Assembly (NCBI GenBank): GCA_964455675.1
Contig: CAYVYK010000016.1
Coordinates: 1-36,681 of the forward strand
DNA: 36,681 nucleotides
Direction of reading: 5' to 3'
DNA from: an uncultured Methanosarcinales archaeon
GTDB taxonomy: Archaea; Nanobdellota; Nanobdellia; Woesearchaeales; CAYVYK01
This document shows positions 4,968-36,678 of the stretch, in pieces; position 1 is the stretch's first letter; each line of letters opens with the position of its first letter. The notes beneath the pieces were generated by a model that worked only from the letters and a program-made list of their open reading frames with translations, was not told the origin of the DNA and ran no database searches. The position numbers and the translations under genes were made by a program.

Positions 4968-6884
4968 TTAGAATACGACCTCAACAATATCCCGATCAAT
5001 CCTCTCCTTGCAACGCGCGACCTTCTCGGCCACATTCTTATTCGTCGTGCTCTTCTGGACCTGATGCAATACATCAATTATTCTACGAAAGAGCCGGATG
5101 ATATCCCCCTCCGCAAGCGAGGACAATTGGAGCAAATCGTCAAAATCACCATTGTTTGCCCAGTGCGATACGATTCGTATCATTCGAAGCAGATTCCTCT
5201 GGTTGATATTCTTAATCACGTACTGGCTTCGCGCAAGGATCGACAAAATATGCCTGTATGTTTGATCGACACCCTTTGTCGCGAAGTGGTCAGAGCCTCG
5301 CTCCTCATATTCCAGGGCAGCAATTACGATCAGTAGCTGATTCTCCGTAAGCTCCTCTGCAATGCTGGAATTGAAAATCTCGCTGATGATAATCTCATTT
5401 GAATAAATGCCCGTTCCAAACTCGCCCTTCTCTGTCAGAAAACCCTGGCTCATGTATCCCATTCTCTGCAGAAGCTCTTTTTTATGATTGAAGGATGCCA
5501 TGATACGTATATTACGGTTATCTTTCCTTCGAAGGTAGTAATCAAAACTATTCTTCAGGATTACCTCAATCTCTTCGGGAGAATGGTTCTTGATCAAATT
5601 CAGCACCGAATTGATTGACAATTGGAACCTTGAGTGAATCGGATCCTTATCAGCGCTTGTCACATCAAGGAGCTTTTCAACATCAAGAGTGTTACGATCG
5701 ATGAGCACGACAACATACCCCACTTCATCTATTCCCCTGCGCCCTGCACGACCAGCAAGCTGGAAGTACTCCTTTGAATTCACCATACGAAAGTTTACAC
5801 CATCAAACTTGTTCAGCGCCCCAAAAAAGACCGTACGCGCCGGCATGTTCACACCAACGGCAAACGTCTCCGTCGTATATAAGACCTTAATCAGTCCGCG
5901 CTCAAAGAGGTTCTCTACGATCTCTTTGAGCCTTGGAAGGAGCCCTGCGTGATGATATGCGATGCCATGTCCAATGATACCCGAGAGCTTGCGCACCGAA
6001 TCAAGCTTTCTGATCTCGGCATCAATATGCTCCGAGAAGTATTTCATGATCTCAGAACGTTCACTACTTGATGTGAAACTCAAAACTCTACTGAGATCTC
6101 GAGCGTTTTCCTCGCATGCCTTTCGTGAGAATACAAAAAAAATTCCGGGAAGCTCCTTTTTCATCTCCTTGATCATATCGATGTGAGATGGGACCTTTAT
6201 TCGAGCAGCTTTTTTCCGCTTGCCTCGTTTTGCTGGCATTACCTTGTAATAATCCGGAATTTCCTGATCACGCCTGAGATCCTTGAGCTCTGCGAGACCA
6301 AGATGAATGTCATACACGAAGTGCTTTAATGGAACAGCACGCTTGAGATACTCAACGACCATGACCGGATGGTCCTTTGTCAGCTGTATCCAGTCGGCAA
6401 ATTCAGCTGCGTTTGGAATAGTCGCAGAAAGACAGAGGAATCGCACATGTTTTGGAGAAAAGATGATTGATTCCTCCCAAACCGTACCCCGCTCGATATC
6501 ACTAATGAAGTGAATCTCGTCAAAAATCACATAGCTCAGATTATAGATAATATTATCTCGAGACATGAGCATATTCCGATAAATCTCCGTTGTCATAACA
6601 AGCAATGGAGCGCTGGGATTAATGACAATATCACCGGTCATGATTCCCACACGATCTTCGCCATATTCCCTTCGGAAATCCTTATATTTCTGATTGGATA
6701 ACGCTTTGATAGGAGCGGTGTAGATGATAATTTTACCCTCATTAATGAACTTATTAATCACATAATCTGCGATGAGCGTTTTACCCGTACCTGTGGCCGC
6801 GCTTACAACAACTGACTTACCCTCCTCCACATGGCGGATGGCGTCCTCCTGGAATTTATCCAGGGTAAAATTCTTGTATTGCAT
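4968..6884 (-). CDS. Ski2/HelY-like DExH-box SF2 helicase with DSHCT-like C-terminus
   Basis: ATGTGKT, YTAPIKALSNQK, MTTEIYRNML, DEIH, LSAT, HHAGLLP, TETFAVGVNMPA, QLAGRAGRRG, EGDIIRLFRR. Start at ATG 6884 with TATA about 6907-6916. Confidence 0.92.
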   Translation of the reverse strand: MQYKNFTLDKFQEDAIRHVEEGKSVVVSAATGTGKTLIADYVINKFINEGKIIIYTAPIKALSNQKYKDFRREYGEDRVGIMTGDIVINPSAPLLVMTTEIYRNMLMSRDNIIYNLSYVIFDEIHFISDIERGTVWEESIIFSPKHVRFLCLSATIPNAAEFADWIQLTKDHPVMVVEYLKRAVPLKHFVYDIHLGLAELKDLRRDQEIPDYYKVMPAKRGKRKKAARIKVPSHIDMIKEMKKELPGIFFVFSRKACEENARDLSRVLSFTSSSERSEIMKYFSEHIDAEIRKLDSVRKLSGIIGHGIAYHHAGLLPRLKEIVENLFERGLIKVLYTTETFAVGVNMPARTVFFGALNKFDGVNFRMVNSKEYFQLAGRAGRRGIDEVGYVVVLIDRNTLDVEKLLDVTSADKDPIHSRFQLSINSVLNLIKNHSPEEIEVILKNSFDYYLRRKDNRNIRIMASFNHKKELLQRMGYMSQGFLTEKGEFGTGIYSNEIIISEIFNSSIAEELTENQLLIVIAALEYEERGSDHFATKGVDQTYRHILSILARSQYVIKNINQRNLLRMIRIVSHWANNGDFDDLLQLSSLAEGDIIRLFRRIIDVLHQVQKSTTNKNVAEKVARCKERIDRDIVEVVF

Positions 6885-6937
6885 TCCGTTAGGTCTGCGG
6901 GAATCGTTATATAAAACCTTGGGATGAGGGAGAAACG

Positions 6938-7196
6938 ATACGTCCGCCGGCAAGAAAAAATTCCTTTCCGAATTTTTTAAGCCGGTGGGCTCATAGTACT
7001 GTGTAAGAATAGCTTTGGATCTGTTGTTGAATCGAAGAATGAGCCCGCCGACAATAGTAACTCGCTTCGCTCGCTCCTAAGTCGGCGGGCTCATAGTGCT
7101 TTGCTAGCTATTGATCCTTACTGCGGTGGAATCTAAGAATGAGCCCGCCGACAAGAAAAAATTCCCTTCAGGAATTTTTTAAGCCGGCTGTCTCAT
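6938..7196. repeat. Three palindromic tRNA-3'-end-derived units in a 100-bp-period tandem array
   Basis: Units 6938-6994, 7039-7094 and 7139-7196 are bounded by ATGAGCCCGCCGAC/GTCGGCGGGCTCAT or variants. Two related 44-nt linkers separate them. A 13-nt stretch is identical to the tRNA-Ile 3' end (7204-7216). Confidence 0.9.
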
Positions 7197-7204
7197 GCTT
7201 TGCA

Positions 7205-7294
7205 TGAGCCCGCCGAGATTTGAACTCGGGACCGCTCGATTTCTTTGGCATTGCCGTATCAGTCGAGCACTCCACCAGGCTAAGCTACGGGCTC
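7205..7294 (-). tRNA. tRNA-Ile(GAT) with 16-nt intron at 37/38 (intron 7241-7256)
   Basis: GAGCCCG/CGGGCTC acceptor stem, CTCGA/TCGAG anticodon stem, CT-GAT-A loop, CCGAG-TTCAAAT-CTCGG T arm, discriminator A; CCA not encoded. Confidence 0.95.
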
Positions 7295-7320
7295 GTAATG
7301 AAGCAGAAATCCGAAGATGC

Positions 7321-7328
7321 TTTATAAA
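7321..7328 (-). promoter_or_regulatory. TATA box of tRNA-Ile
   Basis: TTTATAAA begins 34 nt upstream of tRNA position 1, the same spacing as at the other tRNAs. Confidence 0.65.
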
Positions 7329-7384
7329 CGTTATGGTGGGGGTCTTCGGGATCGGCACTCCCAGTTCGAGACGGTTTCATTGTA

Positions 7385-8074
7385 CTAACGTACTTGGCAG
7401 CGCGTCGTTTTATGTGGACTATTCGCCAAAGGCTTGTGGCCATTCCCCGAAGTCCGTTCGTATCTCTCAAGAACTTCTTGATAACTCCTTGATACCGGGT
7501 GCCATGCAGCATCCTGCCATTCAAAATCCAAGACATCGGGAACAAAACCATGAAGAACATGCCGCTCAATTCCGAGGTCCACAAAGCTCGTCGCCTTAAT
7601 GACACCTACTGGAACATCATGATACGCAGGATTTGCAGGAACGTGGATAACTGGAGTAAAATAATCCCTTGCTGCAATCAAATCATTGGCGCTGCATGCC
7701 GTGTCAGTCACGAGGACGAGACAATCTGGAGTCGTACGCACCGCGTCCGCGACACTCTTCATATTCTTGTATTCTGGCTTTCCGTCAGTCTCAGCGTAGA
7801 TGAAAGGAACGTATGCATGCAGCCTCCACAGCGCATCATTCAGAGCCCTTTTGATACCGTCACCTTTCCTACCATCAGTATAGAAGATCAGCGGGATATT
7901 AGCATGACGAAGACCGTTCAGCAACTCCCCAAGACCTGGTCGAGGAATTAAAATAGGGTCTTCAACGTCTGCACGTCCTTCTCGTCCCGTAGCCATGCCC
8001 CATATCGCTGCCGTCATTTGGATGTCCATGACGCACGCTACTGGCTTAACAGTCTTGCCCCTCAACACAGCCAT
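7385..8074 (-). CDS. Hypothetical protein, divergent HAD-superfamily fold
   Basis: Ordered HAD-like motifs: ACVMDIQMT (DxDGT-like), PRPGLGELL, IFYTDG, KP, LVLVTD..ND. Confidence 0.55.
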   Translation of the reverse strand: MAVLRGKTVKPVACVMDIQMTAAIWGMATGREGRADVEDPILIPRPGLGELLNGLRHANIPLIFYTDGRKGDGIKRALNDALWRLHAYVPFIYAETDGKPEYKNMKSVADAVRTTPDCLVLVTDTACSANDLIAARDYFTPVIHVPANPAYHDVPVGVIKATSFVDLGIERHVLHGFVPDVLDFEWQDAAWHPVSRSYQEVLERYERTSGNGHKPLANSPHKTTRCQVR

Positions 8075-9389: not shown

Positions 9390-9414
9390 CGATCCTCGAA
9401 CCATTTTACCGTCT

Positions 9415-9503
9415 GCCTCCGTAGCTTAGCAGGTAGAGCGTGCGGCTGTTATCAGCAGGTGCCAGCCACCGCAAGGTCGGCAGTTCGAGTCTGCCCGGAG
9501 GCG
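9415..9503 (+). tRNA. tRNA-Asn(GTT) with 16-nt intron at 37/38 (intron 9452-9467)
   Basis: GCCTCCG/CGGAGGC acceptor stem, TGCGG/CCGCA anticodon stem, CT-GTT-A loop, GGCAG-TTCGAGT-CTGCC T arm, discriminator G. Confidence 0.95.
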
Positions 9504-9558
9504 TTCCACAAATCTTAAATAGTTTGCAGATCATTATTGTTCTTTAGGGGGGAGTAAC

Positions 9559-36457: not shown

Positions 36458-36471
36458 GAAAGCTTTAAAAA
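36458..36471 (+). promoter_or_regulatory. BRE/TATA of the tRNA-Glu locus
   Basis: GAAAGC-TTTAAAAA, with the TATA box starting 32 nt before the duplicated tRNA 5' fragment. Confidence 0.7.
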
Positions 36472-36495: not shown

Positions 36496-36603
36496 GCTCC
36501 TGTGGTGTAGCCAACGGCAAACTTTTTCCTCCGGTCGCCAGCCTTACGGCGGCTCCCTCCGAAAAAGTTTGATCAAAAAGAAGGCTGCCTGCGGCAGCAA
36601 AAC
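36496..36603 (+). repeat. Duplicated tRNA-Glu 5' fragment (15 nt) followed by a 93-bp hairpin element
   Basis: GCTCCTGTGGTGTAG at 36496 and 36604; inverted repeat CAAACTTTTTC (36518-36528)/GAAAAAGTTTG (36561-36571); GCTGCC-TGC-GGCAGC (36584-36598). Confidence 0.85.
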
Positions 36604-36678
36604 GCTCCTGTGGTGTAGTCCGGCCAATCATTCGAGGCTTTCGACCTTGAGACCCGGGTTCAAATCCCGGCGGGAGCA
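36604..36678 (+). tRNA. tRNA-Glu(TTC), intronless
   Basis: GCTCCTG/CGGGAGC acceptor stem, CGAGG-CTTTCGA-CCTTG anticodon arm, CCGGG-TTCAAAT-CCCGG T arm. Confidence 0.95.

Follow-up and report, generated by a model that had tools for sequence, protein, structure and literature searches.

Gene-free cassettes bearing copies of tRNA gene ends behind tRNA-Ile and at other tRNA genes of an uncultured archaeon of the Woesearchaeales

The tRNA-Ile locus

Directly behind the tRNA-Ile(GAT) gene of an uncultured archaeon placed in the Woesearchaeales lie three short units, each of which carries a more or less intact copy of the end of that gene on its far side and an inverted copy on its near side. The window analysed here is the whole contig that holds them (C16 in our numbering; GenBank CAYVYK010000016.1, 36,681 bases), part of a 1.72-Mb genome (G000) that comprises 25 contigs and is rated 99% complete. 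The nearest genomes in our species collection all belong to other families of the same order. A prediction made earlier from the letters of the window, hereafter the original prediction, had described three units behind tRNA-Ile with a period of about 100 bp. Repeat finding bore this out, with three in-register copies spaced 100 and 102 nt apart and ending at the predicted positions 6994, 7094 and 7196. Tandem Repeats Finder did not report the array. Its parts are listed below from the gene outward.

7205-7294, minus strand: tRNA-Ile(GAT) gene with a 16-nt intron at 37/38 (Rfam RF00005, 52.7 bits)
7205-7217, minus strand: last 13 nt of tRNA-Ile (positions 61-73), CTCGGCGGGCTCA, source segment of the unit copies (T-loop-anchored end)
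7197-7204, minus strand: short 8-nt linker TGCAAAGC from the tRNA to unit 1 (inverted repeat 7185-7198 / 7202-7215, 86%)
7139-7196, minus strand: unit 1, adjoining tRNA-Ile (inverted arm 7183-7196, core 7153-7182, end copy 7139-7152)
7095-7138, minus strand: 44-nt linker between units 1 and 2, homologous to 6995-7038
7039-7094, minus strand: unit 2, with perfect 14-nt arms (7081-7094 / 7039-7052) and a different, GCGAAGC-containing core
6995-7038, minus strand: 44-nt linker between units 2 and 3 (from the sequence and repeat finding)
6938-6994, minus strand: unit 3, outermost and degenerate (end copy GCCGGCGGACGTA matching 8/13; A6/T6 core like that of unit 1)

The anticodon GAT and the intron of tRNA-Ile were read directly by eye; ARAGORN missed the gene at default settings and, with introns allowed, wrongly called it Ser. 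The 13-nt tRNA end ATGAGCCCGCCGA has three exact copies, at 7039, 7139 and 7204, the last being tRNA-Ile itself. In unit 1, the direct end copy has 12 of 13 nt as in the tRNA-Ile end, and the core consists of TTA, an A6TTCC/GGAAT6 hairpin and CTT. Together with the base that follows it, TGCAAAGC forms a mini-hairpin, TGC-AAA-GCA, which is the axis of a palindrome joining the 3' end of tRNA-Ile to the inverted arm of unit 1. The middle unit, predicted to be the best conserved, has inverted arms that are perfect over 14 nt. Folded as single-stranded DNA, units 1 and 2 reach -17.3 and -19.7 kcal/mol (z -5.5 and -5.75 against shuffles), while unit 3, with a paired change in its inner stem (CCGGC/GCCGG), has a z of -2.8. 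The homology proposed for the two 44-nt linkers held up as well: a 34-nt repeat spanning linker end and arm (7021-7054 / 7121-7154) is 88% identical. So did the claim that inserts are swapped within a conserved frame, units 1 and 3 having A6/T6 hairpins and unit 2 one of the GCGAAGC type. Cores and linkers combine freely: in this array core 1 goes with a short linker in unit 1 and with a long one in unit 3, and core 2 goes with a long linker in unit 2.

Two sequencing runs, both of DNA and from one study, carry the array stretch as contigs; no run listed as RNA contains it. Independent Logan contigs from these runs, covering 6500-7064, 7035-7148 and 7125-7700, show no differences from the window, so the array sequence is not peculiar to one assembly, and the assembly artefact that the original prediction had named as a danger finds no support. 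No single independent contig crosses the whole array; hence the number of units is not independently fixed.

Cassettes at other tRNA genes

Confinement to the tRNA-Ile locus, which would have spoken against any general mechanism, is not what we found. Among the 44 tRNA calls of ARAGORN in G000, 3' ends could be anchored on the T loop in 40 (the calls dropped were Thr-GGT, Pro-TGG, Thr-CGT on C7 and a doubtful 'Asn-ATT'), and we scored direct repeats of each tRNA's own positions 61-73 with at most two mismatches within 400 nt downstream. At least one such copy follows 14 of the 40 tRNAs, against a mean of 0.25 when tails were swapped between tRNAs; six of the 40 have less than 100 nt of flank, the contig ending there. 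No copies of 3' tails were found upstream of tRNAs in G000. Identity ends 0-3 nt past position 73 (the discriminator) and begins 9-18 nt inside the tRNA, except in two Ser-TGA copies, where the exact run is shortened by one internal mismatch. The end copy always sits on the side of the cassette that faces away from the gene, and it stops at the mature tRNA end. Inserts are uniform, measure 49-141 nt and hold no open reading frames (ORFs).

Short units (43-77 nt) form one long hairpin, made up of an outer stem, an internal loop and an inner hairpin that is either A/T-rich or of the GCGAAGC type, an unusually stable kind of DNA mini-hairpin. Four long cassettes (Val-TAC, Val-GAC unit 1, Arg-GCG and Ser-CGA unit 1) have the end copy without a clear inverted arm, and two of these share a core, GCAACTCCTCACT..GTTCGGAGTAAT. 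The end copy is therefore the constant feature, and the hairpin arm a trait of the short family. For 8 of 19 units, no other tRNA's tail fits the arm equally well.

Two junction frames recur, GGC-TTA...ATTG-TC and CCAAAAA...TTTTT-GTR. Frames and cores recur at different tRNAs and in a genome of another family; the arms, by contrast, are those of the individual tRNA. The seven matches to the frame labelled A in which at least 7/10 arm pairs form are all close to a tRNA (222 nt at most) or at a contig end that continues the tRNA-Ser(GCT) locus. The junction TT(A/G)...ATT with its closing pair resembles a T loop holding an inserted hairpin, and a run of T5-8 precedes the 3' arm in about half of the cores. 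Readings of the junction as a bulge-helix-bulge, K-turn or C/D-box motif were dropped, these motifs being absent by eye. An order-wide scan with GGGCTTN{14,30}ATTGTCC matched 162 of 401 genomes, but a reversed-pattern control also matched often, and we regard the scan as noise; of 30 matches checked in other genomes, none lay near a tRNA or had paired arms. Three of the scanned genomes (G315, G337 and G111) are unpublished, and nothing concluded here depends on them.

The design is mirrored at the other end of tRNA genes, where the first 13 nt of the tRNA recur upstream as a direct copy in 8 of 44 cases. In these 5' cassettes, the direct copy is followed by the hairpin, the inverted copy and a linker, and the hairpins are built from tRNA positions 1-11, which do not form a single helix in tRNA. 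One such cassette lies in the window:

36496-36603, plus strand: 5' cassette of tRNA-Glu(TTC) (gene 36604-36678), with a copy of the first 15 nt at 36496-36510, then hairpin-rich sequence

The window also holds tRNA-Asn(GTT) at 9414-9504, which is 91 nt long with no intron called and has a cassette on neither side.

Eight contig ends of G000 fall at tRNA genes (C1 end, C2 start, C3 start, C8 start, C15 start, C16 end, C20 start and C22 end). An N gap lies inside the tRNA-Ser(TGA) array on C2, and the starts of C1 and C3 overlap inside an array of tRNA-Ser(GCT) cassettes whose period is 103 nt; it seems that cassettes break the assembly. At the start of C8 (1-174), ARAGORN called a tRNA-Glu(CTC) with a 98-nt 'intron' that resembles the 5' cassettes of tRNA-Tyr and tRNA-Ser(CGA); judging from its sequence, this call is probably an end copy, a cassette and a tRNA. 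A link between introns and cassettes was considered and rejected, as the two share no meaningful sequence in G000 and the sole 14-nt match lies in a miscalled 'intron' that is probably a 5' cassette. The tRNA introns of Trp (C3), Cys and Leu-CAA (C1) and Met (C20) contain CGATGAC...CTGA-like stretches that recall C/D-box small RNAs (sRNAs), and C/D-box-like sequence is a known feature of archaeal tRNA-Trp introns. A second dispersed repeat family, GTAGGACGGTC(G/A)GCCTCCC... with its complement, occurs in pairs and triplets 58-73 nt apart on many contigs, unlinked to tRNAs (C4:93053-93160, C14:35784-36045, C5:107737-107890 and at least ten other places outside the window).

Origin and pairing of the arms

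Where the two possible sources of the 5' arm can be told apart, namely in tRNAs with a non-Watson-Crick pair in the acceptor or T stem, the arm proves to be a complement of the 3' strand rather than a copy of the 5' strand of the tRNA. All four informative sites agree on this (both Ala cassettes, Lys-CTT and, more weakly, Val-GAC unit 2). As a consequence, the Ala cassettes carry A3-U70 instead of the G3-U70 wobble. Across 15 units, arm positions comprise 142 Watson-Crick pairs (73%), 11 G-T, 4 A-C and 38 others. In the outer helix, 83.7% of cells are paired as compared to 63% in shuffled sets (none of 500 shuffles as high), and 9 of 14 pairs vary on both sides. Given a complement-copied arm and 5' hairpins drawn from positions 1-11, the hairpin copies linear sequence and not the shape of the tRNA.

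These observations weaken the description of the units as tRNA-minihelix mimics, which was the frame of the original prediction. The source of the 5' arm, the loss of G3-U70, the modest proportion of Watson-Crick pairs, the mirror cassettes at 5' ends and the long cassettes without arms all argue against it; what stands in its favour is the likeness of the TT(A/G)...ATT junction to a T loop with an inserted hairpin.

Relatives and evidence for serial insertion

In five of seven arrays the outermost copy is the most decayed, with two ties and no reversed case. Only copies within recognisable cassettes were counted, because 8/13 matches alone are at chance level. From unit 1 to unit 3 of the tRNA-Ile array, the end copies match at 12, 12 and 8 of 13 positions.

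The original prediction had proposed a scan of other tRNA loci, and its expectation of arms that match their own tRNA with shared cores was upheld in G000 and beyond: among 34 sampled tRNAs of three genomes from three other families, five have a downstream and one an upstream copy. In one relative (G025), the cassettes behind tRNA-Val and tRNA-Gly share a GGGCTTGCACG..GGGCATTGTCC frame and the same inner-arm mismatch, whereas their outer arms differ; their inner stems differ by a paired change, CGAC/GTCG as compared to CGGC/GCCG. The tRNA-Val(TAC) end is identical in G025 and its congeners G276 and G382, and a 71-nt cassette is present in G025 only. The sequence past the G025 end copy resembles the trailers directly behind tRNA-Val(TAC) in the two congeners, a likeness read by eye, automatic alignment being poor. 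In G382 (C52), a bare 14-nt palindrome, CTAATGGTCATTAG, lies exactly at the 3' boundary of tRNA-Val(TAC), where one congener has a full cassette and the other nothing. With tRNA-matched arms, common cores, outward decay and a filled and an empty site, the proposal of an element that inserts serially at tRNA genes stands in outline; the part that makes a folded form its substrate is our interpretation, to which we return below.

At four loci of G000 (Ile, Ala-TGC, Ala-GGC and Phe), a single continuous palindrome comprises the tRNA end, 2-4 bases of the trailer, a centre of 2-3 nt and the complement; its axis lies a few nt beyond the gene end. The 200 nt downstream of tRNAs contain GC[GA]AAGC eight times on the sense strand (1.35 expected); upstream of tRNAs it occurs twice (1.47 expected), which is not significant. 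Such features raise the possibility that the cassettes are by-products of replication or repair, in which fragile tRNA boundaries let fold-back or template-switch synthesis at mini-hairpins copy the gene end without any mobile element. The order of tRNA end, inverted copy and direct copy, the position of the palindrome axes, the mirrored design at both gene ends, the enrichment of GC[GA]AAGC on the outward-running strand downstream of tRNAs and the bare palindrome at the same spot in G382 are all consistent with this explanation, as is our failure to find a mobile-element enzyme (see below). Homologous cores and linkers at different tRNAs and in another family argue against it, since they require sequence to spread between loci. 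A direct copy made from the inverted arm should also match that arm, but mismatches are seen, and the upstream counts give the motif no support there. We consider a pure by-product unlikely.

Transcription context

Downstream of the array, in the same orientation, are the following features:

6908-6917 (approximate), minus strand: TATA-like TTTTATATAA between unit 3 and the helicase start codon at 6887 (from the sequence)
4968-6887, minus strand: gene of a Ski2-like DEAD/DSHCT helicase (Pfam matches), the downstream neighbour, outside the element

Of the 32 tRNAs of G000 that lack a 5' cassette, 25 are preceded by a TATA-like box that begins 29-34 nt upstream of the gene; the box of tRNA-Ile lies at 7328-7333. 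Among six tRNAs with a 5' cassette, four have the box at this spacing from the outermost copy rather than from the gene itself. The tRNA-Glu(TTC) gene is an example: its copy lies 108 nt upstream, and the TATA-like box at 36464 precedes that copy by 32 nt. The old start of the gene is thus to be found at the outermost 5' copy, which places the cassette within the transcript. The regular spacing of the boxes suggests, as far as sequence can tell, that tRNA transcripts are leaderless or nearly so, like those of Nanoarchaeum. Nanoarchaeal tRNA genes have been described with a promoter box 26 nt upstream, T-stretch terminators and, in one case, a C/D-box sRNA directly behind a tRNA (PMC3491384). 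Within the transcription unit, a cassette separates either the promoter from the tRNA or the tRNA from its former trailer. Of the 22 tRNAs that lack a cassette, 12 are followed by a T-rich tract; among the 14 cassette-bearing tRNAs, it follows directly in five and after the outermost copy in five. A scan for bacterial-type terminators gave no match on the units, nor did Rfam match any family there at E up to 10. Both RNase P RNA and RNase Z are encoded in G000, so leaders and trailers made of cassettes can be removed.

This setting invites an explanation at the RNA level, by which transcribed hairpins are kept for some role in the precursor, be it punctuation cut by RNase P and RNase Z, a terminator or insulator before the co-oriented helicase gene, or a trap against mispairing with spare copies. 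The location of the cassettes inside the transcription unit and the presence of both processing activities would suit such a role. So would a T-loop-like junction and closing pair that are invariant or nearly so across two families, the paired change between the inner stems of the two G025 cassettes, the T5-8 runs, and the wobble pair and G-T excess considered below. However, an RNA function leaves unexplained why the 3' arm is the neighbouring tRNA's own end, and the cassettes are sporadic, being present at a minority of tRNAs here and in the three relatives and at none of five tRNA-Ile loci of relatives. The arms are only 73% Watson-Crick paired, 38 of the 53 mispairs being neither G-T nor A-C, and neither Ala cassette retains the G3-U70 wobble. 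The T runs precede the 3' arm, so that many transcripts would lack it, and the Rfam search again offers no family. We judge an RNA-level module to be improbable. The same arm evidence, with the T runs, weakens the specific alternative offered by the original prediction, in which RNase P and tRNase Z would cut the array into small tRNA-like RNAs serving as decoys or guides.

Candidate enzymes and known systems

As originally predicted, no integrase or nuclease gene adjoins the array: its neighbours are the helicase and two proteins without Pfam matches, and a Pfam search found no recombinase gene beside it. Two of the kinds of companion gene that had been proposed (tyrosine recombinase and HUH/RAYT genes) were hardly more forthcoming elsewhere, as Y1_Tnp is unmatched in G000 and the only tyrosine recombinase is a truncated, XerA-like one. 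That protein of about 208 aa consists of the catalytic domain alone, lacking the first ~85 model positions, and its match falls under the cut-off of every NCBIfam model matched, integron integrase models included. Its ORF (1447-2073 of locus L011, C5:58520-62008) lies in a markedly AT-rich, foreign-looking stretch.

Attachment-site (att) duplications of tyrosine integrases and cis-mobilizable elements come close to the cassettes in layout. In both, an insert lies at a tRNA end, the working end stays with the gene, the spare copy stands on the far side and older units lie outward; the tRNA segment is repeated on both sides (here at 14 of 40 tRNAs), the gene is regenerated and the copy begins near the T loop. 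The cassettes differ in being gene-free and 49-141 nt long, in a repeat of 9-18 nt that ends at the mature tRNA end, in the inverted arm and in their use of 5' ends too; there is no kilobase-sized, integrase-coding insert, and the sole recombinase of G000 is truncated and located elsewhere, on C5. The cassettes could nonetheless be ordinary att scars, that is, remnants of kilobase-sized viruses or plasmids integrated by tyrosine integrases and then deleted down to their att-flanking ends. Such elements are recognised by a direct repeat of a tRNA 3' segment that begins near the T loop; a 44-bp att repeat around a 21-kb island is one published example (PMC9897764, which also describes a CRISPR case), and the one recombinase gene does lie in an AT-rich island. 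Yet scars would hardly be so uniform, so short and free of ORFs, nor be found at a third of tRNAs and at both gene ends; frames common to different tRNAs, a repeat of only 9-18 nt and a tRNA-specific inverted arm without counterpart make this explanation very unlikely.

Other systems share individual traits with the cassettes. Integron attC sites and the CTX phage attP(+) site are, by analogy, imperfect hairpins with a conserved junction, a variable apex and little sequence conservation; the stem of attP(+) imitates its duplex target, and integron cassettes enter serially beside a fixed site. Integron attC sites have conserved R''/R' boxes (RYYYAAC...GTTRRRY), whereas the cassettes have invariant columns GGC-TT...TTG-C, no such boxes, no integron integrase and no cargo ORFs, and their stems follow each tRNA. 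Repetitive extragenic palindromic sequences (REP, REPIN), miniature inverted-repeat transposable elements (MITEs) and palindrome-associated transposable elements (PATEs) are likewise non-coding, hairpin-forming, multi-copy and non-autonomous. They have fixed termini and are dispersed between genes, whereas cassette arms vary by target and good copies occur only at tRNA ends; G000 has no match to a RAYT/Y1 transposase or TnpB (DDE families were not searched). Casposons, which are Cas1 transposons, also target tRNA 3' ends and generate target duplications of 14-15 bp, and the cassettes are similarly bounded by a duplication of about 13-15 bp. The cassettes are 100 times smaller, have a tRNA-specific inverted arm and occur at 5' ends too, and there is no Cas1 in G000. 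With tRNA-like structures processed by RNase P and RNase Z (minihelices, mascRNA), the cassettes share a 12-14-bp stem of the acceptor/T 3' strand, the discriminator and TT(A/G)...ATT at the T loop; they differ in a 5' strand that is a plain complement, in poor pairing in many units and in a 25-30-nt hairpin in place of the loop. A CRISPR array has identical 25-40-nt repeats, unique spacers and cas genes, whereas here the repeat is a 13-nt tRNA end, the 'spacers' are homologous hairpins and there is no Cas1. Full-text literature searches returned no description of such tRNA-end hairpin cassettes, in keeping with the original prediction's view that this is not a named system.

Origin of the cassettes

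On balance, we favour the reading that the units are non-autonomous, gene-free cassettes that insert beside a tRNA by way of its terminal segment, regenerating the gene end and displacing older copies outward. The folded single strand of the cassette is probably the form that recombines. A cassette would enter on the tRNA-proximal side by recombination over the terminal segment, and its entry would restore a working tRNA end while shifting the older end copy outward, so that arrays would grow as accretions at an att site. The complement arm would be present since the recombining folded strand needs a stem that imitates the duplex target, comparable to CTX phage attP(+) at dif and to integron attC. 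The tRNA-specific outer arms may be rewritten by copying the target, for instance by fold-back synthesis nucleated at GCGAAGC-type mini-hairpins, with the enzyme acting in trans. The likeness to a minihelix would then be a by-product of copying a continuous 3' strand, and RNase P and RNase Z would merely trim cassettes from precursors.

Several observations weigh against this reading. Direct copies are near-perfect, but the inverted arm has about 3.5 of 13 non-Watson-Crick positions, so insertion of this kind needs the extra assumption of an old arm and a young copy. How a cassette gains arms for a new tRNA is explained by none of the models we tried. One stem pair is a G-T wobble kept in 8 of 10 sequences, G-T pairs exceed A-C pairs in the arms (11 vs 4), and the junction frame is invariant or nearly so across G000 and G025; together these hint at a strand-specific constraint, which could be at the RNA level. 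Cas1 (PF01867), RVT_1, Y1_Tnp, the TnpB zinc ribbon (PF07282) and Resolvase are unmatched in G000 while control genomes match them (DDE families were not searched), and the sole recombinase scores 183 bits as XerA-like against a cut-off of 220. Neither variants nor joints at the array appear in the two runs of one study, in which no contig spans the array. Finally, no empty counterpart of the tRNA-Ile locus was found. Among the loci of relatives screened (L002-L008), five hold a tRNA-Ile (L002-L005 and L008), all without copies, and these genomes are too distant for empty-site use; a query of metagenome contigs with the helicase protein returned two loci at 47% identity, neither with a tRNA.

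A further-reaching version of serial insertion is possible, though we put it forward only tentatively. The cassettes may represent a new class of mobile element without fixed ends, in which a conserved hairpin core enters at any tRNA gene boundary, the arms are written from the target by complement copying and a host enzyme recombines the folded strand, with the lone Xer-like recombinase and replication or repair factors as candidates.

Implications

In practical terms, the cassettes break assemblies, with at least eight contig ends at tRNA genes, and mislead tRNA finders, as in the 98-nt 'intron'. They also put long structured leaders on tRNAs whose promoters otherwise fit leaderless transcripts. 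If they are insertion cassettes, tRNA gene ends in reduced archaeal genomes would be active recombination sites without a recognisable transposase or full integrase. No described small repeat is known to have arms that match each target, and the cassettes offer a concrete system in which to ask how hairpin DNA is aimed at a gene end. Should the new-class reading prove true, target-templated, enzyme-borrowing transposition would be remodelling tRNA leaders, trailers and possibly introns across DPANN archaea.

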